A stretch of 64,000 bases of DNA from Candidatus Pacearchaeota archaeon (lineage in GTDB: Archaea > Nanobdellota > Nanobdellia > Pacearchaeales > JAHJTO01): NCBI GenBank assembly GCA_038849525.1, contig JAWCMS010000002.1, positions 28,322 through 92,321 of the forward strand, written 5' to 3'. The notes below the pieces were generated by a model. It was given only the letters and a program-made list of their open reading frames with translations, made no database searches and was not told where the DNA came from. Positions 2,141 to 57,106 of this stretch are shown one piece after another. Position numbers and translations under genes: made by a program. Positions within the stretch are counted from its first letter, which is position 1; every line of letters begins with the position of its first letter.

Positions 2141-2950
2141 TTAAATACCTCCACAATCTTTTTCCATAACTATTTTTTCTGCGAGCTTTTTTTCATAAGA
2201 AGTTAGCTGCCCTTGTTTTAAAATCCAGCCTTTTTCTGAAAAAAGACTTTGAAAACCTTTTTTCATTGCTTCTTCTAGTTCTGAAAAAGAAGGAATTGTT
2301 CCAAGATAGTCTTTTATGCAACCAACCTTTCTTTTAGATTTCTCAAACAGCTCTTTTTTCTGCTTTTCTGAAATATTCTGGCATTCAATAATCTCCTGAA
2401 TATTATCATCTAGAATAATTGTCCCGTGTTGAAGCAGAAAACCATTAAGCCTTGTTTGAGCATTTCCAGAAATTTTTTTATGTTTAACAATTATATCATA
2501 AGGATTGTCATTTAAATAACAATTTCCTTCTCTTTTCTTAGATAATATTTTTCTTTTATAGGCCTTTATTCCTAAATTGTTTAATCCTTTAACTAATCCT
2601 TCAGAAAGATAGTTATAAGCATCTAAAACTTTATGAGGGATTCCTTTTTCAGGCAATATTAAAGAATAAACGAAATCATTTTTATGCAAAACAGCTGTTC
2701 CGCCAGTAATTCTCCTGACTAAATGAAATCCTTTTTCTTTTATCTTGTTTAAGTCAAAATCATTTATATTTTGATGATATCCAATAGTTATTGCTGGAGG
2801 AATAAATCGATAAAATCTTAATGCTGGAAGAGACTTTCCTTCAGAACAAGACTTTAATATCGCTTCATCTATGGCCATCTGCATTGCGCCACATTCTTCT
2901 ATAATTGGAATTAGTCTTATCTCATTTTTCATTAAAACATTCTCCAGCAT
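2141..2950 (-). CDS. Lipoate-protein ligase A catalytic (N-terminal) domain / octanoyltransferase-like (BPL/LPL family)
   Basis: LRFYRF.PPAITIGYHQ......LV.RRITGGTAVLH motif of the LplA/LipM catalytic domain. At 269 aa it lacks the LplA C-terminal domain, like archaeal split LplA-N. Confidence 0.65.
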   Translation of the reverse strand: MLENVLMKNEIRLIPIIEECGAMQMAIDEAILKSCSEGKSLPALRFYRFIPPAITIGYHQNINDFDLNKIKEKGFHLVRRITGGTAVLHKNDFVYSLILPEKGIPHKVLDAYNYLSEGLVKGLNNLGIKAYKRKILSKKREGNCYLNDNPYDIIVKHKKISGNAQTRLNGFLLQHGTIILDDNIQEIIECQNISEKQKKELFEKSKRKVGCIKDYLGTIPSFSELEEAMKKGFQSLFSEKGWILKQGQLTSYEKKLAEKIVMEKDCGGI

Positions 2951-3782
2951 TATATGAACTCCTGATTAAGGGCCCTGCAATAACTTTTTTTAGCCCTATT
3001 TTTTTAGCTATGCTCTTTATTTCCTGAAATTCTTTAGGATTATAAAATTTTTTGATTTTTGCATGTTTTGAACTTGGAGACAAATATTGTCCTATTGTTA
3101 CAATGTCTACTTGAGCTTCTTTTAAATCTTTAAGCGTTTGGATTATTTGTTTTTTTGTCTCTCCTAAACCTATCATAAATCCTGATTTTGTAGTTATAAC
3201 TGGATTAATTTTTTTGGCTCTTTTTAATAATTCTATAGAAAGCTTATAGCTCCCTTTTGGCCGTAATTTAGGGAATAATATCTTAGCCACTTCAACATTG
3301 TGGTTTACTAAATCAGGCTTAGAATCAACTATTTTTTTTAAAGAATCCCAATTTCCTTTTAAATCTGAAATTAACAATTCAATCTTGCATTTAGGATTTA
3401 TTTTTCTTATCTCTTTGACAGTTTTAACAAAATGCCCTGCACCCCCATCTTTCAAATCATCTCTTGTAACACTGGTTATGACTACATAGTTCAATTTTAA
3501 TTTTTTTACGGCTTTTGCAATTCTTTCAGGCTCATTTTTGTCTACAAGATTTGGAATTCCTTTTTTAATATTGCAATATTTGCAGTTTCTTGTGCAAGTA
3601 TCTCCTAAAATCATGAAAGTTGCTGTTTTATTTGAAAAGCATTCATATCTGTTAGGGCAGTTTGCCTCAACACAAACTGTATGGAGTCTGCTCTTAGAAA
3701 CAAGGTTAAAAGTTTCAAGATAACTATCTTTATTAAAATCCTTTATCTTTATCCAATTAGGCAGTTTCATCTTTAGATTCAA
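2922..3782 (-). CDS. lipA: Lipoyl synthase (radical SAM)
   Basis: CVEANCPNRYEC auxiliary-cluster motif plus CTRNCKYC radical-SAM CxxxCxxC. Adjacent to the LplA-like gene. Confidence 0.85.
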   Translation of the reverse strand: MNLKMKLPNWIKIKDFNKDSYLETFNLVSKSRLHTVCVEANCPNRYECFSNKTATFMILGDTCTRNCKYCNIKKGIPNLVDKNEPERIAKAVKKLKLNYVVITSVTRDDLKDGGAGHFVKTVKEIRKINPKCKIELLISDLKGNWDSLKKIVDSKPDLVNHNVEVAKILFPKLRPKGSYKLSIELLKRAKKINPVITTKSGFMIGLGETKKQIIQTLKDLKEAQVDIVTIGQYLSPSSKHAKIKKFYNPKEFQEIKSIAKKIGLKKVIAGPLIRSSYNAGECFNEK

Positions 3783-3811
3783 ATAAAAAAATAAAAAAAA
3801 TAAATAACTGA

Positions 3812-4594
3812 TTACTTTTTGCTTATTGATTCTCTTGCAATAAGATCTGTCAATGGATGTTTTGGATTTAATGGAGACATAACCATCTGATTGACTGCAG
3901 GAGGATACTTGAATCCTGTCTGCTCCAGCCTTTTTAATGCTGTGTCGAGCTCTTCTGGTTTCATTCCAATCCAGATTTCATCATCCTGAGCATCTCCAAC
4001 GCTTCTTGCTCCTCCACAGGGGATTGTGAGCCATGGAGATTTTCCCATTGCAACTGCAGAGATAACTTCGCATGCAGCATGCCCATTTATGCAAGAGCAT
4101 GGCTTTTTGCCAGTTGCGTCAAAATAGCTTACCATCAAGAGATAAGACTGGGAAGAGTTTACAAACATCACTATTGCATCGGGCTCCTGCTTTAATCTTT
4201 GGAACTCTTTTAAAGGCCCGAAGATGGCTGCTTCAAACTTTTTCTGCGGCAAAGCCTCTATATTTTTGACAAGCTTGTCAAATGTATTTGGATTGTATGC
4301 AAATCCCTTCACCCATCTCTCTTTGATGTCTGCAGGAGGCATTCCAAATCCCAATATATATGTCCCTACAACACAAGCATCTATATTCTCAAAATAAACT
4401 CCCCTTGTCTTTTCATAAACTGCCGCCAACTTCATAACTTGGCATAAAGCAAGATTGTCTTCCAGAGGCATTACTCCGATTTTTTTAAGCTCGTCTTTTT
4501 TCTTTAGGAACTTTATTCCAACAGGAACACCTTTCCCTCTGACTAGAGAGTTGTATCTATTGTGCAAATCCTCAAAATTTAAATTTTTGCCCAT
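3812..4594 (-). CDS. DUF169 (ArCR, COG2043-like) family protein
   Basis: About 260 aa with a ...PVGIKFLK... start and Cys/His-containing core, resembling the archaeal conserved DUF169 family. It is embedded in the lipoate cluster. Confidence 0.4.
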   Translation of the reverse strand: MGKNLNFEDLHNRYNSLVRGKGVPVGIKFLKKKDELKKIGVMPLEDNLALCQVMKLAAVYEKTRGVYFENIDACVVGTYILGFGMPPADIKERWVKGFAYNPNTFDKLVKNIEALPQKKFEAAIFGPLKEFQRLKQEPDAIVMFVNSSQSYLLMVSYFDATGKKPCSCINGHAACEVISAVAMGKSPWLTIPCGGARSVGDAQDDEIWIGMKPEELDTALKRLEQTGFKYPPAVNQMVMSPLNPKHPLTDLIARESISKK

Positions 4595-4607
4595 TTTTTA
4601 CCTCCTT

Positions 4608-4994
4608 TTATCCAATTTTTTGTTTTATCCATACTGAAGCTTCTTTCGCATCAATTAGCTTTTTGGCTTCAGAAGGATTATCAAGTCTGACTTTCATTAT
4701 CCAGCTTTCATAAGGCTTTTTGTTTATTTTTGAAGGCTCGTCAAAAAGTTTATCATTAACTTCAATAATCTGGCCTGAAACCGGGCTTGACAAATGGCCA
4801 GACCATTTGACAGCTTCCAGAGAAACATAAATATCGCCCTGCTTTATTCTTTTTCCTTTTTCCGGAAGTTTGATAAACACAAATTCCTTGACTTTTTTTG
4901 CAGCAGGCTCAATAACTCCTACAACTGCAATATCTTTCTCTATTTTTACCCATGAATAATCTTTGTTATATTTCAGATTTTTTGGAAGATCCAT
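4608..4994 (-). CDS. gcvH: Glycine cleavage system H-like lipoyl carrier protein
   Basis: Lipoyl-attachment region ...YVSLEAVKWSGHLSSPVSGQIIEVN... (E-x-VK motif) in a GcvH-like fold. The start is placed at the internal Met (MDLPKN) to limit overlap with the downstream gene. Confidence 0.7.
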   Translation of the reverse strand: MDLPKNLKYNKDYSWVKIEKDIAVVGVIEPAAKKVKEFVFIKLPEKGKRIKQGDIYVSLEAVKWSGHLSSPVSGQIIEVNDKLFDEPSKINKKPYESWIMKVRLDNPSEAKKLIDAKEASVWIKQKIG

Positions 4995-6678
4995 TTTTGC
5001 CCCTTTTAATTCGATTATTATCATTATTTTCAGAATTAAATTCTTTTTCTTCTTTAATCCTTCTCGTTATGAAGATTATTATTCCTGAAATTGTCAAGGC
5101 AATTACTAGCAGCCCTATTGCAACAAATACATTATTCATCAAAGCAGGTTTTATCAGCAAAACAATGCCTAAACAAAGCATCATCGTCCCTGATATTAAC
5201 TTTAGAACCTGCCCCTGCGCTTCTGTAAGCTTTTTTGCTCCAAGAGTTATTGTAAACATGAGCACAATTGCTGACAAAGGTATGACATAAACTATGTTGT
5301 AAAATGCCAGATACAGATAATATTGTATTGTTGAGAGGTCATTCAAGGTCAGAATTCTTGTGAATACCATTGGAAATCCTGCTGTGCAAAGCAGCTCATA
5401 AGTGTTTGCGGCTATTGCCAGCACTATTGTTCCAACCACCATAGAATACATTGATTCTGCTTTCAGAAGATTTCTCATTCTTTTAAACAGGCTTGGCTTG
5501 GCTTTTTCAGGGATTACAAGTGAAATTCCTTTCTCAAAAAAGAAAAAGTCCTTAATGTTTATGGCTGCGACTATAAGTGCTATAACTCCGGCTATTGTAG
5601 TAATTATCATAATCTGGCCGATAATCAGGAAAAGATTAAGCCATGCAGACATGAATAAAAAGTATATCAGAGCTGAAAAGAATACAAATGTTCCTCCGAT
5701 AATAAGCATTTTCTTCCTGGATTGGGCATATACAAGCATGCTTAGCAAGAAAAACAAAACAAAAAATGAGCATGGATTAAATCCGTCTAAAAATCCAAGT
5801 ATTACTGTGAATATCGGAAGAGACATTTTAGAGGTATCAACCTTTCCAAAAAGAGGAAGAGTTACTGTGCTTTCTGTCTCAGGAGTTATATCTTTTGGCT
5901 GTGGCGGATAGGGGATTAATCCATCAATTTTATCAGCAGGGCAAATACATCCCCCGTCCTTGCATGAGATTATTTCATCTTCAAGATTTTCTCTTATGGC
6001 AGTCTCTCCAATTATATATCTGTCCCCAATAAATACAATAGGGTATGCAGCATACTCCAATCCATAAACCTGCTTAAAATTCTCATAAATTTCTTTCTCT
6101 TCTGAGATTGAAACATCATGCTTTTTTAGATCAACATTGTACTTTTCATTCAATGAATCAATATAAGGCAAGATATTATCGCATGTTATACAATTCCCAT
6201 GAATGAATACATGAACGCAAACTTCTCCTAATGGAGAGATTGTTTCCTTAGATTCTGAAATCTCTGATTCTGAAGGTTTTTTTAGTTTTTCAATCGGATC
6301 TGTACAGCCATGCTCAATGCAGTATTTTACTTTATCTTCAATCTCCTCAGCCATATAATCGGCATAGCCCACCCAAACTTTATCATCTAAGAAAGTTGTA
6401 GGAACTCCCATTGCAGATGTTCCAAATGCTTTAGCCATATCAGAAAAGAGCTTTGCATTTTCTGGATTTGACCAAGTTTCATAAGATTTAACTTCTAATT
6501 CGGGATATTTCTGCTCTAAACCTTCTAAAAATGGCTTTTCATGAGCGCAATGAGGGCACCCTTCTCCCCAGAAAAAATAAAGAGAAACTTTGTTTTCTTC
6601 CTGCGCTAAAACAAAAGAGGATAGTAAAACTAAAATAAAACTTGCTAAAATAAACGCTTTTATGTATGATTTATTCAT
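4966..6678 (-). CDS. Membrane thiol:disulfide oxidoreductase: two thioredoxin-like domains fused to a DsbD/CcdA-type transmembrane domain
   Basis: Signal/TM segment, then WGEGCPHC and HGNCITC thioredoxin-like CxxC motifs, then a polytopic domain with FLDGFNPCSF typical of CcdA/DsbD. The C-terminal tail is highly charged. Confidence 0.6.
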   Translation of the reverse strand: MNKSYIKAFILASFILVLLSSFVLAQEENKVSLYFFWGEGCPHCAHEKPFLEGLEQKYPELEVKSYETWSNPENAKLFSDMAKAFGTSAMGVPTTFLDDKVWVGYADYMAEEIEDKVKYCIEHGCTDPIEKLKKPSESEISESKETISPLGEVCVHVFIHGNCITCDNILPYIDSLNEKYNVDLKKHDVSISEEKEIYENFKQVYGLEYAAYPIVFIGDRYIIGETAIRENLEDEIISCKDGGCICPADKIDGLIPYPPQPKDITPETESTVTLPLFGKVDTSKMSLPIFTVILGFLDGFNPCSFFVLFFLLSMLVYAQSRKKMLIIGGTFVFFSALIYFLFMSAWLNLFLIIGQIMIITTIAGVIALIVAAINIKDFFFFEKGISLVIPEKAKPSLFKRMRNLLKAESMYSMVVGTIVLAIAANTYELLCTAGFPMVFTRILTLNDLSTIQYYLYLAFYNIVYVIPLSAIVLMFTITLGAKKLTEAQGQVLKLISGTMMLCLGIVLLIKPALMNNVFVAIGLLVIALTISGIIIFITRRIKEEKEFNSENNDNNRIKRGKNGSSKKSEI

Positions 6679-7062: not shown

Positions 7063-7165
7063 CGCCCGGACCGAGATTTGAACTCGGGTCGGAACCGATC
7101 TGTTCAGCAATTTCTTCCGAAATTGGTTGACAGGGTTCTATGCTAGGCCGCTACACCATCCGGGC
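7063..7165 (-). tRNA. tRNA-Asp (anticodon GUC) with a ~30-nt intron at position 37/38
   Basis: Manual fold: acceptor GCCCGGA/TCCGGGC. Anticodon stem GAACC/GGTTC with loop CUGUCA interrupted by ~30 nt. T-arm CCGAG-TTCAAAT-CTCGG. Discriminator G. It is a GC-rich island in AT-rich DNA. Confidence 0.7.
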
Positions 7166-8683: not shown

Positions 8684-8817
8684 TCCCGGCGGGCGGACTC
8701 GAACCGCCAACCACTCGGTTTCTTTTTTGGCTGCCTATGAATCATCTTTTTCCCGAAGGAATATCTTCATAGCGCAATAAGCTACAGCCAAGTGCTCCAC
8801 CGTTGAGCTACGCCGGG
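8684..8817 (-). tRNA. tRNA-Tyr (anticodon GUA) with a long (~59 nt) intron
   Basis: Manual fold: acceptor CCCGGCG/CGCCGGG with the archaeal Tyr identity pair C1-G72. D-arm GCTC-AACGGTG-GAGC. Anticodon stem CUUGG/CCGAG with loop CUGUAG then the intron. T-arm GGCGG-TTCGAGT-CCGCC. Discriminator A. Confidence 0.6.
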
Positions 8818-21180: not shown

Positions 21181-21621
21181 TTAAGCTAATTTTCTGAGTT
21201 CAGAAAACCATTCTGCAAGAGAAAAACAGATTTTTCCACCTGAATCTTTTATATACCCTTCTATTTGGGGATTTATTGCAAAATTTGAATCATGTTGTCG
21301 CAAGTCTGTTCTTAATGCAATTATAGGCCCTAATTTTTTTAGAGAAAATTCAGCTATCTCTCCTGCTATTCCATCATCGACAGCATGGCTTCCATCAAGA
21401 ATCGGCGCCATTATTTTTGCTTTGGACATTAGCTTTCTATTAGATAATATTATTGCTTTTGCCGCATCTTTTGATGTAACTTTTTTTATTATTCCTGAAT
21501 CCCTAAAAGGTTCCTTAACAATAAAATATTTCTCAATTTCAGGAATTATCATTTTAAGAAGCATTCTTCCTGTCTCTGAAAATCCCAGCTGATTTGCAAG
21601 ATACAACAAATTTTTAGCCAT
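21181..21621 (-). CDS. Nucleoside 2-deoxyribosyltransferase-like (SLOG-type Rossmannoid) protein
   Basis: ...APILDGSHAVDDGIAGEIAEF... resembles the D-x-G-T-x-x-E-x-G nucleophile region of NDT/Rcl-family enzymes. Only 95 bp downstream of the AbiEii-like gene on the same strand. Confidence 0.45.
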   Translation of the reverse strand: MAKNLLYLANQLGFSETGRMLLKMIIPEIEKYFIVKEPFRDSGIIKKVTSKDAAKAIILSNRKLMSKAKIMAPILDGSHAVDDGIAGEIAEFSLKKLGPIIALRTDLRQHDSNFAINPQIEGYIKDSGGKICFSLAEWFSELRKLA

Positions 21622-21716
21622 TGTTTTTCAATAGAATTTTAGTTTATAAGATTATATAAACAACAAAATAAGCATTAAAACAATCAATTATTATTACATC
21701 ATCCGGAATCCTTTTT

Positions 21717-22499
21717 TTATTCAAAAAGACTTCTTTCAAATAAAGGTTTTATCTCTTCAAAATATTCTGCCTTACTTTCAAAATAAGCATTGTCAAATTT
21801 TTGTGTTTCAAAAAAATCAGGCATCATGGATTCTTCAAGAACTCTTCTGAACTCATCAAATTTTTTTGAGTCAGTTATGTATTTTAAAACATTATCAAGA
21901 ACTTGTATCTCCCACCCATAATCATTATATGATTTTGCTTTTTGTCTTATCTCTTCTTTTGTAGCTTTTGTTTTGAGAACATTAACAATATAATCCATAT
22001 CAAACAAATCAGAAGGTTTCATTGAACCTCTCATTTTCATTCTGTGCATTGTTGCGATTACCTTGTCAGCATAAATTTCTGAAGGATCTTCTACGAGTAT
22101 CGGAGAATATTTTCCCTCGCTTTTCTTAAATTTCTTTGGGGCACTTATTCTATCAACTTCGATTTTTCCGTTAGGCGTATTTGGTATATCTTGATTATAA
22201 GATATTCTAAAAAAATCTGTATTGTTTTTTGCTAGTTTTGGATGATACACTTTATTGTCTATGCATATATCTTTGTTAAGATCTTTTATAATATGATTCT
22301 TATAAAGATCAAATCCACCTTCTTCTATAGCAGCATCTATATCTGAAGAATATCTCGGAGATGAATAAAAAAAATGTAGCGCTGCTCCGCCTCTTATAAT
22401 GAGATTTTCTCTTGAAACGGGACTTTCCTGTATTTTGTAAAGGATATGCTCAAGTAATGAGTCTCTCTCTTTTATTAAATCTGCTCTTTGGATATTCAT
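21717..22499 (-). CDS. AbiEii/AbiGii-type nucleotidyltransferase (DUF1814, type IV toxin-antitoxin toxin family)
   Basis: N-terminal LIIRGGAALHFFYSSPRYSSDIDAAI matches the GG(T/A)AL...R.S.DID signature of AbiEii NTases. No AbiEi-like wHTH partner is seen. Confidence 0.55.
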   Translation of the reverse strand: MNIQRADLIKERDSLLEHILYKIQESPVSRENLIIRGGAALHFFYSSPRYSSDIDAAIEEGGFDLYKNHIIKDLNKDICIDNKVYHPKLAKNNTDFFRISYNQDIPNTPNGKIEVDRISAPKKFKKSEGKYSPILVEDPSEIYADKVIATMHRMKMRGSMKPSDLFDMDYIVNVLKTKATKEEIRQKAKSYNDYGWEIQVLDNVLKYITDSKKFDEFRRVLEESMMPDFFETQKFDNAYFESKAEYFEEIKPLFERSLFE

Positions 22500-22575
22500 A
22501 GAATAAATATGTCACTTGACTATTTAAACCTTTTGCTAATTACTACTATTGAGTGACATAATAAACATTATTTCA

Positions 22576-22761: not shown

Positions 22762-22833
22762 TGGGCCTAAGCGGAGTCGAACCGCTCTCTATTCGGTGTA
22801 AACGAATTGTCCTAGCCGATGAACGATAGGCCC
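22762..22833 (-). tRNA. tRNA-Val (anticodon UAC)
   Basis: Manual cloverleaf: GGGCCTA/TAGGCCC acceptor; anticodon arm AUUCG-UUUACAC-CGAAU; T-arm AGCGG-TTCGACT-CCGCT. 72 nt. Confidence 0.8.
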
Positions 22834-22911
22834 TTAAATCTTTATAATTTTTACTGTTTAAAACTTTATCTATTAATAAACTTTAAATATTCACTTTGGT
22901 GCATATTAATA

Positions 22912-24711
22912 ATGACAGAAGAAACTAAAAAAGCAGAAGAACTTCTAAGCAAAGTAAAAGAAAAAGAGAAGCCTTTAGAGGAAGAAAAAATTTCTAAAGA
23001 AGCACAGAAGCAGATTGAGCAATTAAAAACAAAACTCGAAACTTTCAAAAAAAGTATCTTAAAAAAATTTCCATTCATAGATGCGATAGGATTAATCCCC
23101 CCACAAGCAGCAAAGCTGTTTGAAGAAGAAAATATAGAAAAAGAAAAGCTTATACACATAGCAATAATAATTTCAAATGAAAAAGAAAAAGAATTTGGTA
23201 AGGTTAAAACAGAAGCAATTAAATTAGTACAAGCAATAAGACCGAAAATATGGTTACATATCTACACGATAAATGAAATATGGGAAATGGCTTCTGATGG
23301 TAAATATGATATGGTTGAGGCTATAGGAATGTCTATGCCTATGCATGATAAAGGAATATTAGGAGCACTAAGAGTTGCAAGTATTCATAAATCTTTATGT
23401 ATAAGAAAATTTGAGAGGTATATTGTATCTTATGTTATTGCTGGTTCTTTAATTAGAGGAACTGCAACTAAGACAAGTGATATTGACGTATTTGTTATTA
23501 TTGATGATACTGACGTTAAAAGAATGACAAGAACTGAATTAAGAGATAGATTAAGAGGAATTATTTATGGATATGTAATGGAGGCCGCAGATATTGCAGG
23601 AGTAAAAAACAAATTATCTCCGCAAATTTATATTCTGACAGAATTTTGGGAAGGAATAAGAGATGCAAATCCAATTTTCTTTACGTTTGTTAGGGATGGG
23701 GTTCCATTATACGATAAAGGAACATTTACTCCGTGGAAATTGCTTTTGAAAATGGGAAAAATTACCGGAACGCCGGAAGCAATTGAAAGATTTCTTACAA
23801 TTGGAGAGAAAGTTGAGGAAGTAATTGATAGAAAAATGATAGATATCGCAACTGAAGATATTTATTGGAGTGTTATTACACCATCGCAAGGAGCATTGAT
23901 GCTTTACGGTTTGGCCCCACCTACTCCTAAAGAAACAGTCGAACTAATGAAAAAAATTTTTTATGAGAAAGAAAAACTACTTGAGAAGAAATATATTGAT
24001 TTTTTAGAACATATTGTTGTTGATGTTTATAAGGCATACGAGCATGAAAAATTGAAAAAAATTTCTGGGAAAGAAATAGATGAGTTATTAAAAGGAACAA
24101 AAGAGTATATTAAAAGGATAAGAAAACTTGTTGAAGAGGTTGGAAAAAGAAGTGCAGAAAAAACAATAGTAAATATATACAAAGATATAATCGGTATTCT
24201 TGAAGGATTATTCGGCAAATTTAATGAAGACCAGCTTGTTTCTAAATTTAAATTAGAGATAATAGAAAAAGGAAAATTACCAGGATCTTATTTAAAGATT
24301 CTAGACGAAGTAATCAAAGCAAAAAAAAGCTATGAATTAAAAAATGGGTTATTAAAAATGTCTAGACAAGAAGTTGAAAGTATCAGAAAGGATGCTCAAA
24401 TTTTGATTGCGGCATTAACAGAATATTCGCAGAGGCAAAAACTTTTCGAAATGAATAGACTAAGGTTTTCAGTTAAAATAGGAGAAAAAGAAGGGGAGAT
24501 TTATCTTATTGGAAATAATGCTTTTGTAATTTCTGATTTGAAAACACCTGAGCTAAAAAAAATTGATTTGGAAAAGAGTATTATAAAAAAAAGTAACATG
24601 ACAGAATTAGAAGAATCATTAAAAAATCCGCAGGCTGAAACAAAATTGTCTAAGGATATAATCGAAAGAATAGAAAAATTGCTTGATAAAAAAATTGAAT
24701 TTGTTATTTAA
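22912..24711 (+). CDS. Large Pol-beta-superfamily nucleotidyltransferase: N-terminal coiled coil + NTase + KNTase-like helical domain + C-terminal helical extension
   Basis: AGSLIRGTATKTSDIDVFVIIDD is the minimal-NTase motif hG[GS]x9-13Dh[DE]. The following domain (...GVPLYDKGTF...GKITGTPEAIERF...) is homologous to the C-domain of 30281-31162. The ORF-track start at 22819 overlaps tRNA-Val, so the start is moved to the ATG at 22912 (MTEETKK). Confidence 0.5.
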   Translation: MTEETKKAEELLSKVKEKEKPLEEEKISKEAQKQIEQLKTKLETFKKSILKKFPFIDAIGLIPPQAAKLFEEENIEKEKLIHIAIIISNEKEKEFGKVKTEAIKLVQAIRPKIWLHIYTINEIWEMASDGKYDMVEAIGMSMPMHDKGILGALRVASIHKSLCIRKFERYIVSYVIAGSLIRGTATKTSDIDVFVIIDDTDVKRMTRTELRDRLRGIIYGYVMEAADIAGVKNKLSPQIYILTEFWEGIRDANPIFFTFVRDGVPLYDKGTFTPWKLLLKMGKITGTPEAIERFLTIGEKVEEVIDRKMIDIATEDIYWSVITPSQGALMLYGLAPPTPKETVELMKKIFYEKEKLLEKKYIDFLEHIVVDVYKAYEHEKLKKISGKEIDELLKGTKEYIKRIRKLVEEVGKRSAEKTIVNIYKDIIGILEGLFGKFNEDQLVSKFKLEIIEKGKLPGSYLKILDEVIKAKKSYELKNGLLKMSRQEVESIRKDAQILIAALTEYSQRQKLFEMNRLRFSVKIGEKEGEIYLIGNNAFVISDLKTPELKKIDLEKSIIKKSNMTELEESLKNPQAETKLSKDIIERIEKLLDKKIEFVI

Positions 24712-29496: not shown

Positions 29497-29559
29497 ATTT
29501 ATCACTTAATAGTGAACACAGATAGAAAGATTTTTAAATTCTTATAACATAAAAAGATT

Positions 29560-30222
29560 ATGTCAAATAAAAATTTAAAAGAACTTGAACAACTTGTAAA
29601 AGAAGTAAAATTTATAGACTTAAATCTAGAAAATATAATCAAAAAACCATTTGATTCTTATGATTCAAGGCACAATCTTGATGCTATTGTAAAGCATGAA
29701 TACCCTATAGATACAGCTGCTTCTTCATATTTTCATGATGATGACATTCCATATATGAATAAGTATATAACAAAAGTAGTTGAAAAAAGGAAAAATAAAA
29801 TGAAAGAGATTATTAAAAATAATTTTGAAGATTATCTTAATGAAATTGATGAAAAAAGTTTACTTGAGCTCGCTTTTAGTATGGATGAAAAGTATAGAAA
29901 AATATTATCTGCTGAAGGAAGTTATGAAAAAATAATAAGCCTTATAAGAGAATATGCCGCACATCCTGACCTTTGTATTGAATATATCAAAAACAGCAGA
30001 AATCCAAATGTATTACAAGACACTTATAATGCTATAATCGAAGTAGAAAAGCAAACAATTGCAAATAGAGAAGGATTTTTTAGCATAAATGAAAATGAGG
30101 GAAAGATTATTTTAAATAGAAATAATGTTGAGAAGTATATAATTAGTATGGTTGATAAAAGTGATGCTAACAAAAAAAATAAAATTTACTCTGGTATCGT
30201 AGAATCTTATTTTGAAAAATAA
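29560..30222 (+). CDS. Hypothetical protein
   Basis: 220-aa ORF with coding-like composition; no recognised motif. Confidence 0.3.
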   Translation: MSNKNLKELEQLVKEVKFIDLNLENIIKKPFDSYDSRHNLDAIVKHEYPIDTAASSYFHDDDIPYMNKYITKVVEKRKNKMKEIIKNNFEDYLNEIDEKSLLELAFSMDEKYRKILSAEGSYEKIISLIREYAAHPDLCIEYIKNSRNPNVLQDTYNAIIEVEKQTIANREGFFSINENEGKIILNRNNVEKYIISMVDKSDANKKNKIYSGIVESYFEK

Positions 30223-30280: not shown

Positions 30281-31162
30281 CTATTTAGGCATAAATCCAG
30301 TAATTTTTTTCACAACAATGGCCATTTCTCTAAGATATTCATCTGCTCTTTCCCTCCAAAGCTGGATTTCTTCGCCTTTTATGTCTGTAATTTCTCCTCT
30401 CAAAATTTTATGAGTCAATGAATAAAGTTCCCTATACCAATCTACATATTTTTCTTTCAGAAGCCCTTTATCGACTAGAAACTCACGCATTGCAGCAGGA
30501 ATATGCTCTGGACTTGGAGGAGATTGTTTTGCAGCTATTAATGCAGAATGAGATGAATCGACAAATGCCCAGTATATAGCTTCAAGAGAATTAAGCATTG
30601 ATGTTTTTGCTCGAAGTAGATGTGCAGGTGCCCTGCCTAAAGTTATATAAATCATTTCAGGAGTCCCTTTTATTTTTCCTTGGATCATTAATGATTTAAG
30701 AGGATTAAAAAATCCTCCAAAGTCAATTAATGGAACACCCCATCTTATAATATTAAGAATTACTGGCTCTCCCCTCATCATCTCACTCCACCAAGTTGTT
30801 AATCTTACTGTATTAATGTGTAATGGCTTGATATAAGGATTTTTATTGATTATTTTACCGAGCTCTTCACGATACCATGCAATAAGTTCAGAATCCCATT
30901 GGATTGTTGCATCGTCTATAACAATTATTATATCAATATCTGATTTTGGTGTTGTGATTCCTTTTGCTGCAGAACCGAAAAGAATAATGCTTTTTATGAC
31001 TTTGCCTATTTTCTGATAAACTTTGTTTGCGAAGTCTAGTGCGATATCTTTATCATTAGCAAGTTTTAAGGTAGGAAAAGTTTTTTCCATCTCTTCTTTA
31101 GTTTTTTTTGGTTTTAATTCAGTCTTTTCGTTTTCTTTTTTAGAATTCTTTTTATTCACCAT
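30281..31162 (-). CDS. Pol-beta-superfamily nucleotidyltransferase with KNTase-like C-terminal helical domain (paralog of 22912-24711)
   Basis: ILFGSAAKGITTPKSDIDIIIVIDD NTase motif. The C-domain ...GVPLIDFGGFF...GKIKGTPEMIYITLG... aligns with the large paralog. Confidence 0.55.
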   Translation of the reverse strand: MVNKKNSKKENEKTELKPKKTKEEMEKTFPTLKLANDKDIALDFANKVYQKIGKVIKSIILFGSAAKGITTPKSDIDIIIVIDDATIQWDSELIAWYREELGKIINKNPYIKPLHINTVRLTTWWSEMMRGEPVILNIIRWGVPLIDFGGFFNPLKSLMIQGKIKGTPEMIYITLGRAPAHLLRAKTSMLNSLEAIYWAFVDSSHSALIAAKQSPPSPEHIPAAMREFLVDKGLLKEKYVDWYRELYSLTHKILRGEITDIKGEEIQLWRERADEYLREMAIVVKKITGFMPK

Positions 31163-55773: not shown

Positions 55774-56037
55774 TCAGTGCACATAAGCAAAAGTGCTTTG
55801 TTTCATGCCTAAAATAACTCCTTCCAGGTTTATTCTCAGATATTTTCCTGTTCTGTCCAAAACATCAAAGTGGTTTTCCAATTTATCATAACTCCACAGT
55901 TTACCATTGATGTCTCTATACATCATTGCTCCTGTCTTCGGATTGATTCCAACTTTCGCTTCTTGCAGAGAATAGCACTTTTTAGGCAAAACATACCCTG
56001 CATTCTTCATGAATTCAAATGTTTCTTTAAGGTTCAT
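55774..56037 (-). CDS. Hypothetical small protein
   Basis: 87-aa ORF, divergent from the AbrB-PhoU-like gene. Confidence 0.25.
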   Translation of the reverse strand: MNLKETFEFMKNAGYVLPKKCYSLQEAKVGINPKTGAMMYRDINGKLWSYDKLENHFDVLDRTGKYLRINLEGVILGMKQSTFAYVH

Positions 56038-56167
56038 TTTGTCTCCTTATATGTTACTTTATAGTGATAAAAGAAATTTAAGAAGATTTTTAATAAGATA
56101 TATATATTTGTATAAGTATATATAAAAACAAAAGATTTATATATTAAAAGATAATGATAAGTACAAC

Positions 56168-57106
56168 ATGAAACGTAAAATAATCAAGTTAGGCACGGCA
56201 ACTTTAGTAACCAGCTTGCCTGCAAAATGGATTAAGGAATTTGGATTAAAACAGGGCGACTATATTGATGTTGAAGAAATGAAAAGTAACCTTATCTTAT
56301 CAACAGAAAAAGAAATCGCTAAGGCAGAAAAGAAAATTGATCTTAAAGGAGTTAACACAAAGCTTGCATCTTATTATATCGAAGCGGCATACTGCATTGG
56401 CTATGATAGGATAGAGATTCTACATGAGCCTTATATTACAGAGTATAAAACGAACAGAAAGATATCAACATCAGAATTTATACAAAAAGAGGCAAATAGC
56501 TTTATAGGGATAGAAATTATTGAGCAATCCCCTGAAAAAACTGTTCTGAAAGATCTCGGTAAAGTGTCTGATACAGAGGCTGACAATATCTTAAGAAGGT
56601 GTTTTTTGCTTACAAAGGACATGTTCAATGAATGCTTTAATGCAATAAAAAATAAGAACAAGGAAGTTTTAAAAGAAATGGATAGCAGAGGTAACAATGT
56701 CCAGAGATTTATATATTATTATAAAAGAATATTGAATAAAAAAGGATACAAGGATTTTAACAAAACTGCTGTAATGTACCATAACATCGAAATTCTTGCG
56801 GATATTGTCGGTATAACAAAATACATTGCGAAAGAAAGCCTACTCTTCAGAAAAGATTACACTGAAAAAGCACTGAAAGTTTTTTCAATGACTACAGATT
56901 CAATAAACAAACTCGATTCTCTTTTCTTTACATTTTCAAAGGAAAAGTCAATGGAGATAATAAAAGAAAGGGCGCAGATATGGGAACTCATGAATACTGA
57001 AAAAAATAAGTCAACAGCGGAAGATGCTTATCTCTATTCTAAGTTAGCAATGATAGTTATGAATGTTTCTTATCTCGCTATTGGAAGGTTTTACTTAGAA
57101 TTATAA
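56168..57106 (+). CDS. AbrB/SpoVT-PhoU-like regulator (paralog of 11666-12622)
   Basis: KIIKLGTATLVTSLPAKWIKEFGLKQGDYI (AbrB-like). Conserved mid-domain GIEIIEQSPEKTVLKDL versus GVEIVEQNAEQIVIKDI in the paralog. Confidence 0.55.
   Translation: MKRKIIKLGTATLVTSLPAKWIKEFGLKQGDYIDVEEMKSNLILSTEKEIAKAEKKIDLKGVNTKLASYYIEAAYCIGYDRIEILHEPYITEYKTNRKISTSEFIQKEANSFIGIEIIEQSPEKTVLKDLGKVSDTEADNILRRCFLLTKDMFNECFNAIKNKNKEVLKEMDSRGNNVQRFIYYYKRILNKKGYKDFNKTAVMYHNIEILADIVGITKYIAKESLLFRKDYTEKALKVFSMTTDSINKLDSLFFTFSKEKSMEIIKERAQIWELMNTEKNKSTAEDAYLYSKLAMIVMNVSYLAIGRFYLEL

Follow-up and report, generated by a model that had tools for sequence, protein, structure and literature searches.

The nucleotidyltransferase (NTase) toxins of the AbiE and MenAT systems are thought to require a cognate antitoxin that induces their auto-phosphorylation. 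Within the DUF1814 family to which they belong, the roles of the NTase motifs have been described (PMC11375011), and residue S78 of MenT3 is known as the site of antitoxin-induced auto-phosphorylation (PMC11375011; bioRxiv 10.64898/2026.01.19.700257). The present analysis concerns a 260-aa AbiEii/DUF1814 NTase, and the 146-aa protein of the nucleoside 2-deoxyribosyltransferase (NDT) family encoded beside it, in a metagenome-assembled genome (MAG) of Candidatus Pacearchaeota (DPANN), within a stretch of 64,000 nucleotides of contig JAWCMS010000002.1 (positions 28,322 to 92,321 of the forward strand); this whole stretch is here called the window, and its coordinates count from its first letter. 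An earlier note, made from the letters of the window, had proposed that the two genes constitute a nucleotide-centred conflict module. The wider comparison makes a different reading highly probable: AbiEii and NDT are two unrelated genes, independently transcribed and adjacent through local synteny only, with the AbiEii protein belonging to a clade that has no adjacent AbiEi antitoxin. The features on which the argument turns are the following:

22762-22833, minus strand: tRNA-Val(TAC), by ARAGORN and by Rfam at 55.6 bits
22576-22646, minus strand: tRNA-Gly(GCC), by ARAGORN and by Rfam at 65.6 bits; the variable slot starts just 3' of it
22521-22560, minus strand: predicted upstream control region of AbiEii, with a dyad at 22540-22557 and an element resembling the archaeal B recognition element and TATA box (BRE/TATA) at 22521-22534
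21717-22499, minus strand: AbiEii/DUF1814 NTase, 260 aa, by PF08843, PADLOC and an AlphaFold model; catalytic motifs intact
21622-21716, minus strand: AbiEii-NDT spacer of 95 bp, T-rich in places and carrying a TATA-like box (TTATAAA) ~29 nt ahead of the NDT start codon
21181-21621, minus strand: NDT-family protein, 146 aa, by PF05014, a family profile and an AlphaFold model

In the description of the locus the earlier note holds up well: both open reading frames (ORFs) have the extents it gave and are co-directional across a 95-bp gap, and the adjoining tRNA-Gly and tRNA-Val are confirmed by two methods, with Rfam finding nothing further in the region. It is in the proposed partnership that it fails. 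Genomic contexts were gathered by exact-protein look-ups, a genome scan with the NDT alignment and a metagenome scan with the AbiEii alignment; 60 loci were scored by hidden Markov models (HMMs) for AbiEii, NDT and the window neighbours, and 5 later AbiEii contexts were read through precomputed Pfam annotations. Among these 65 related loci (numbered L001 onward), AbiEii and NDT are found together only in the window and in one sister lineage (L001/L023), in which a phosphoribosyltransferase (PRTase)-like gene stands between them; the linkage in unrelated genomes that the proposal calls for is missing. Each gene is found without the other: NDT alone in the Pacearchaeota relatives L005-L011, and AbiEii alone in L002/L003/L022, where it directly adjoins the SIMPL-family gene, as well as in ~16 further contexts of its clade, as judged from fetched flanks of up to 6 kb. 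Ten NDT loci from Chlamydiae, Asgard, Bathyarchaeota, Patescibacteria, Methanosarcinales and Aenigmatarchaeota lack AbiEii and have no neighbour that recurs or is of defence type. Between the same genomes the NDT proteins are 73-82% identical, against 54-59% for AbiEii. What is conserved in Pacearchaeota is a block comprising a divergently oriented gene for a ~600-aa NTP_transf_2 protein, tRNA-Val, tRNA-Gly, the slot, in some cases the PRTase-like gene, NDT, SIMPL and/or a helix-turn-helix (HTH) gene, TGT and NDK. What emerges is an ordinary NDT of housekeeping type without conserved linkage to AbiEii-like genes, which is how the earlier note itself had said that its proposal might fail. More generally, a defence-type NTase beside a protein of NDT/SLOG fold is an adjacency that ought not to be annotated as a new nucleotide-signalling defence module.

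The family assignment of the 260-aa protein, by contrast with its proposed partnership, is secure: it matches Pfam PF08843 with E=1.8e-16 (61.3 bits, against a cut-off of 22.5) and 18 PADLOC AbiEii models, the best at 2.8e-18. Its AlphaFold model, with a predicted local distance difference test score (pLDDT) of 91.7, displays a Pol-beta-like NTase fold with a helical C-terminal domain, and the nearest solved structures recovered by Foldseek, with a probability of 1.00, are JHP933 (4ok0/4o8s, E~1e-8) and MenT4 (6y56, E=3e-6). The segment by which the family had been recognized from the letters is indeed the NTase motif GG37-38...R49-x-S51-x-D53-x-D55. Across 13 members of the clade the residues G37, G38, R49, S51, D53, D55, E114, K146, F166 and D167 are invariant, and R49/S51/D53/D55 correspond to R76/S78/D80/D82 of MenT3; the catalytic motifs expected of the family (GG...R-x-S/T-x-D-x-D, a third acidic residue, a Lys motif and D-L-[FY]-D) are all present. 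The clade is small—only 28 of 1.84 billion representatives score at E<=1e-30—and comprises ~50 clusters at 90% identity; its named members are all DPANN archaea, the organism names given being only Pacearchaeota and Nanoarchaeia. By homology with the AbiEii/MenT toxins, the enzyme would most likely transfer nucleotides onto tRNA 3' ends and be able to block translation, while its gene would constitute a ~0.9-kb monocistronic cassette of promoter, ORF and T-rich tail. It may hence be seen as a modestly interesting variant of the known DUF1814 family, antitoxin-less and, to judge by its conserved residues, apparently catalytically intact; such a lone AbiEii may act by itself as an abortive-infection toxin, or it may have been domesticated. 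Two further members of the clade deserve mention. In L027 the gene is split in two (498-737 and 741-1334), whereas L025, a close relative, has an intact copy; the split one looks like a pseudogene, suggesting that the gene is dispensable in some lineages. In L063, a Nanoarchaeia MAG, AbiEii (2845-3603) lies directly downstream of a tyrosine recombinase (1982-2809) and is followed by small ORFs (3618-6420); these surroundings could be a mobile element, or the recombinase could simply be a housekeeping XerA.

The missing antitoxin, which had been remarked upon at the outset, proves to be a feature of all the clade contexts examined. A custom AbiEi HMM built from control loci gave no match either in the clade loci or across the 64-kb window (best E>0.5), and with the window ORFs alone its best match was at E=4.1. 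The same model recovered an adjacent AbiEi in 21 distant AbiEii loci, at E values from 3.5e-7 to 1.6e-106; thus, the method detects AbiEi where it is present, and the clade can be taken to lack it in cis. In distant AbiEii homologues from the same scan a ~200-aa gene abuts the toxin, and an AbiEi_4 domain is found in 6 of the 7 such genes tested. The immediate neighbours of the clade members include neither an AbiEi nor any other recurrent partner, many of the downstream genes being convergent. In the window, the gaps on the two sides of the AbiEii ORF measure only 76 bp and 95 bp, so that there is no room for a gene beside it, and no tandem repeats hinting at an RNA antitoxin were found around it. 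The adjacent AbiEi would thus appear to have been lost, and since the whole clade is without it, the loss was presumably ancestral rather than local. Because two-gene detection rules would miss a clade of this kind, the defence repertoires of DPANN archaea may be under-counted. The retention of all catalytic and phospho-site residues, with no antitoxin in the examined contexts, also raises the question of how such an enzyme is tolerated in symbiont genomes of ~1 Mb.

One possible answer is suggested by the DNA upstream of the gene. The ~45 nt before AbiEii are conserved across loci that lie at differing genomic positions and whose proteins are only 33-59% identical. Their consensus layout is a dyad YACT-N4-AGTR, 5-8 nt, a BRE/TATA-like CGAAAG-N-TTTAWAWA, 21-26 nt, and the ATG; in the window, the dyad GTCACT-CAAT-AGTAGT (22540-22557) is followed by AAAAGG-TTTAAATA (BRE/TATA-like, 22521-22534), which ends 21 nt before the ATG. 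Of the 15 upstream regions in the initial alignment, 13 have the dyad and BRE/TATA; when all ~19 contexts are counted, 15 have them. An nhmmer model of the element scores the AbiEii sites at E values from 1e-5 to 8e-10, with the best site elsewhere in ~470 kb at an E of at least 0.05. The window contains 4 perfect dyads where 1.8 would be expected, 3 of the 4 being intergenic. In 443 kb it occurs 19 times, with a BRE/TATA downstream in 9 cases, 7 of which precede AbiEii; on these counts, the possibility that the dyad is a generic promoter feature was rejected, its combination with BRE/TATA being nearly gene-specific. A scan for bacterial promoters and terminators yielded counts at or below shuffle expectation, the promoter type being in any case the wrong one for archaea. 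The arrangements upstream of both AbiEii and NDT would fit leaderless archaeal transcripts, and the dyad may be regarded as a candidate operator for a putative trans-acting factor; it bears what we take to be a resemblance to the sites of the TrmB family. A TrmB/HTH_20-like protein encoded in L001/L007 was considered as the regulator and set aside: it is membrane-anchored, is present independently of AbiEii and has no homologue in the window.

The element is not confined to AbiEii. In L005 (1165-1197), and also in L006, a perfect dyad GTTACT-TTAT-AGTAAC with BRE/TATA precedes an unrelated DUF6036-like NTase (ORF 1221-1889 in L005) that occupies the same slot, i.e., a different NTase cargo at the same site appears to come under the same control element. 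The same dyad/promoter architecture stands before an IMPase-like gene in L025. Within the window itself, at 29499-29545, TCACT-TAAT-AGTGA (dyad 29503-29514) is followed after 7 nt by AGAAAG-ATTTTTAAA, with 22 nt to the ATG of a 220-aa ORF (29560-30222, plus strand), which is convergent to the gene for a 293-aa NTP_transf_2 protein (30281-31162). By the likeness of its upstream region, this ORF may belong to the same regulon as AbiEii; considered as a potential trans partner, it matches no Pfam family, and none of the loci that carry AbiEii holds a homologue of it. A third intergenic dyad-like site, GTTACT-TTAT-AGTGAT at 56053-56070, lies between ORFs 55774-56037 (minus strand) and 56168-57106 (plus strand), ~60 nt upstream of a BRE/TATA-like element, a spacing unlike that of the AbiEii sites; the product of the gene after it has 312 aa and an N-terminal domain of the AbrB/MazE type. 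Under the mechanism suggested by these patterns, AbiEii expression would probably be controlled in trans via the dyad operator abutting the BRE/TATA of a leaderless transcript, which would replace the AbiEi autoregulator. That the clade represents a DPANN-restricted, self-contained AbiEii unit, a tRNA NTase with the potential to block translation that is held in check transcriptionally in this manner rather than by a co-encoded AbiEi, is offered as a tentative proposal which we regard as possible but doubtful. Were it true, an operator shared with the slot NTase of a sister lineage (L005/L006) and with at least one other window gene would point to a small accessory regulon, controlled in trans, in archaea with reduced genomes, and the conserved dyad in itself provides a testable handle on transcription regulation in uncultured members of DPANN.

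The other gene of the pair presents a different picture. As a single sequence, the 146-aa protein matches PF05014 only marginally (E=1.3e-6, 29.0 bits against a cut-off of 28.8); a profile of 23 homologue clusters matches solved NDTs at E=3.2e-12, and a precomputed PF05014 match exists for 20/22 homologue clusters, so that its earlier description as NDT-like can be upheld. Its AlphaFold model (pLDDT 82) superposes on EfPDT (7m5h), DpNDT (7o62) and the Chroococcidiopsis enzyme CtNDT (8pq*) with template-modelling (TM) scores of 0.73-0.81, DNPH1 being a weaker structural match. The segment that had attracted attention as a nucleophile region reads D82-D83-G-x-x-x-E88 and aligns with D82/E88 of CtNDT. 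Along with these two residues, Y7 also aligns with its same-numbered counterpart in CtNDT, wherein E88 is the covalent nucleophile, and D111 and N117 match the leaving-group acid and the 5'-OH ligand of that enzyme; Y7, D82, E88, D111 and N117 are all conserved in the family alignment. At the position of CtNDT D62 (LlNDT D72) the family has an invariant Asn61, an active-site Asp thus being missing; given that the D62N mutant of CtNDT retains ~50% of its catalytic efficiency (PMC10913048), activity in the presence of Asn61 is plausible. The subfamily with Asn61 in place of Asp, and with Asp76 in place of CtNDT Asn77, spans DPANN, Asgard, Bathyarchaeota, Chlamydiae and Patescibacteria, and the two substitutions may point to a changed sugar or substrate specificity.

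In terms of its genomic behaviour, this NDT is an ordinary conserved Pacearchaeota gene of core type. A stretch of ~55 nt before it, which includes the TATA-like box, is conserved in L001, L008 and L010, and partly in L005, despite the different upstream neighbours in these loci (AbiEii, another ORF, a tRNA); that the element is kept whatever lies upstream suggests that NDT has a promoter of its own. The protein would most likely function as a nucleoside (deoxy)ribosyl-transferase or hydrolase in base/nucleoside salvage, with Glu88 as the nucleophile. The neighbours of NDT in the relatives include the PRTase-like gene, NDK and a dCMP deaminase, which makes a salvage role the most economical suggestion, and such a role would fit an organism expected to rely on scavenged nucleotides. 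The PRTase-like gene, situated between slot and NDT (L001 6832-7182; L005 1921-2304), codes for a short protein of 116-127 aa whose match to the PRTase domain (E~2e-9) is confined to the N-terminal portion, and it has no counterpart in the window; a PRTase-NDT salvage pair is possible. A link between NDT and TGT in 7-deazaguanine salvage was also entertained and rejected: the two are associated only within the Pacearchaeota synteny, and the association is absent from the 10 loci of other phyla.

The position between the tRNAs and NDT is indeed a variable hotspot, as had been surmised from its neighbourhood. The tRNA-Val/tRNA-Gly pair is also found at the homologous locus in relatives, and the slot 3' of tRNA-Gly, which holds AbiEii in the window, is occupied by the 222-aa DUF6036-like NTase in L005/L006, by an unrelated 267-aa ORF in L008 and by a 107-aa ORF in L007; in L010/L011 it is empty, with NDT directly after the tRNAs. 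The idea that these slot proteins are divergent versions of AbiEii or AbiEi was discarded for want of any similarity, only the 222-aa protein of L005 matching an NTase family, and that weakly (DUF6036, E=4e-4). The suggestion that the region is an island flanked by the tRNA therefore survives only in part: the content of the slot does vary, but NDT lies outside it and the customary marks of an integrated element are missing. No integrase was found in the window, searches around the AbiEii cassette for att-like repeats and for partial copies of a tRNA returned short chance matches only, and the GC content is flat at ~0.30, with no compositional shift in the window.

Several observations weigh against the reading of two unrelated, independently transcribed genes or against parts of it. 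The genes are co-directional and their gap is only 95 bp, so that read-through co-transcription is possible; most of the contexts are short metagenomic contigs, such that a trans partner, be it NDT or an AbiEi elsewhere, is possible; and the promoter and operator calls come from sequence, archaeal promoters being easily over-called in AT-rich genomes. Further, AbiEii identity roughly tracks that of the flanking genes, so it is perhaps an old resident and not a recent insertion, and the Asn at the CtNDT D62 position together with the borderline Pfam score leaves the exact NDT chemistry a prediction. The close co-directional spacing is also what first speaks for the conflict module, in which the NTase would make a nucleotide signal or modification that the NDT/SLOG-like partner senses or processes, or in which NDT would take the place of the antitoxin. 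The absence of AbiEi agrees with this scenario, as do the recurrence of the pair in the sister lineage L001/L023 and the existence of toxin-first DUF1814 systems with a downstream antitoxin (seen in the control loci; bioRxiv 10.64898/2026.01.19.700257). Yet the linkage is limited to a single syntenic block whose constant member is NDT, with AbiEii as the one that varies, a third gene intervenes in L001, L002/L022 retain AbiEii with no NDT at the locus, and neither the ~16 other clade contexts nor the 10 NDT loci of other phyla show any association. With NDT having its own conserved promoter-like element and no PADLOC model matching its product, we hold the conflict module to be very improbable, and the adjacency of two unrelated genes through local synteny remains the preferred account of the pair.

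As for AbiEii itself, its domestication as a DPANN housekeeping NTase, acting for instance on a tRNA or a translation factor rather than as a toxin or in defence, would explain the missing antitoxin. In line with this, all its contexts are housekeeping neighbourhoods, with no AbiEi or other recognizable antitoxin gene in those examined; tRNA genes precede it at the Pacearchaeota locus; its identity tracks the flanking genes; and its promoter is conserved and its catalytic residues invariant. Diphthamide genes, too, are found directly upstream of clade members: a Dph6-like gene in L004 (2506-3183), L028 (5219-5911) and L030 (28-486) and, in a different lineage, Dph2 in L031 (4894-5898; PF01866 E=1e-58). 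This association, which may be fortuitous or may hint at a role connected with translation, amounts to only two independent contexts and was noticed post hoc. A housekeeping role sits poorly with the small size of the clade (28 representatives at the above threshold) and with the patchy distribution of the gene at the same locus among close relatives, it being absent or replaced in L005-L011; one copy is split into a pseudogene (L027) and another has an integrase and a series of small ORFs as its neighbours (L063). On balance, domestication strikes us as rather unlikely. Lower still do we place the view that AbiEii is a remnant of a tRNA-targeting integrative element, its antitoxin and integrase lost by decay. 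Its location just 3' of tRNA-Gly, the varying slot content, the extra ORFs between the two tRNAs in L001 and the reported enrichment of AbiE in DPANN genomes (PMC12988326) are what such an origin might predict; against it, there are no att-like direct repeats, partial tRNA copy or integrase in the window, there is no GC shift, and outside Pacearchaeota the clade is not beside tRNAs. The intactness of the ORF and of its catalytic motifs across the clade is at odds with simple decay, and AbiEi is lacking clade-wide rather than at this locus in particular. We therefore consider such a remnant quite improbable: the lack of att repeats, integrase and GC shift, along with the tracking of flanking identities, speaks for a long residence, with the gene repeatedly lost or replaced, more than for a recent integration.

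The context genes in the rest of the window are archaeal (thermosome, TGT, NDK, L35Ae and L10e); the SIMPL-family gene that comes after NDT is on the plus strand and hence convergent with it. Rfam recovers two further tRNA genes that ARAGORN missed, at 7063-7165 (minus strand, 44.7 bits) and 8684-8817 (minus strand, 49.4 bits), whose lengths of 103 and 134 nt suggest introns, and intron-bearing tRNAs are also present at the homologous locus of L001, L002, L005 and L022. The ~600-aa protein encoded divergently beside the tRNA pair (22819-24711, plus strand) is kept in all the Pacearchaeota relatives; it has a minimal NTP_transf_2 domain with weak matches to MntA, CBASS cyclase and PDC-S09 models, and the aforementioned 293-aa protein (30281-31162, minus strand) is its paralogue. 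As the listed start of its ORF at 22819 overlaps tRNA-Val, the real start is probably a downstream Met at ~22912.

With the SLOG/NDT nucleotide-signalling conflict systems, themselves predictions of comparative genomics, the sole likeness is the broad Rossmann-like fold of the NDT/SLOG superfamily, and the window NDT has no conserved linkage to a nucleotide-generating enzyme, an effector or a defence gene. It is far better compared with the type II NDTs (CtNDT, Desulfotalea DpNDT, Enterococcus EfPDT and the related DNPH1/Rcl), with which it shares the fold, equivalent catalytic positions and a similar size of ~150 aa, differing in an identity of only ~20% and in having Asn61 for D62 and Asp76 for Asn77. 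For AbiEii, JHP933 of Helicobacter pylori (PDB 4O8S/4OK0) is the best structural and sequence match among the solved structures. JHP933, likewise of the DUF1814 family, has to our knowledge no characterised cognate antitoxin either; it differs in being a bacterial protein of ~13-14% identity, from a mobile plasticity zone and with an unrelated regulatory context. Nearest to it among the described systems are AbiE (AbiEi-AbiEii, a type IV/VII toxin–antitoxin system of abortive infection) and MenAT of Mycobacterium tuberculosis, which have the same PF08843 domain, fold and four NTase motifs. One of these motifs is the R-x-S-x-D-x-D loop, in which the Ser/Thr serves MenT3 and AbiEii as a regulatory phospho-site (PMC11375011). 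In contrast to these systems, the window AbiEii is probably monocistronic, has no adjacent AbiEi/COG5340 or other antitoxin gene, and belongs to a small DPANN clade in which a dyad is found beside a predicted archaeal BRE/TATA promoter in place of an AbiEi-bound operator.

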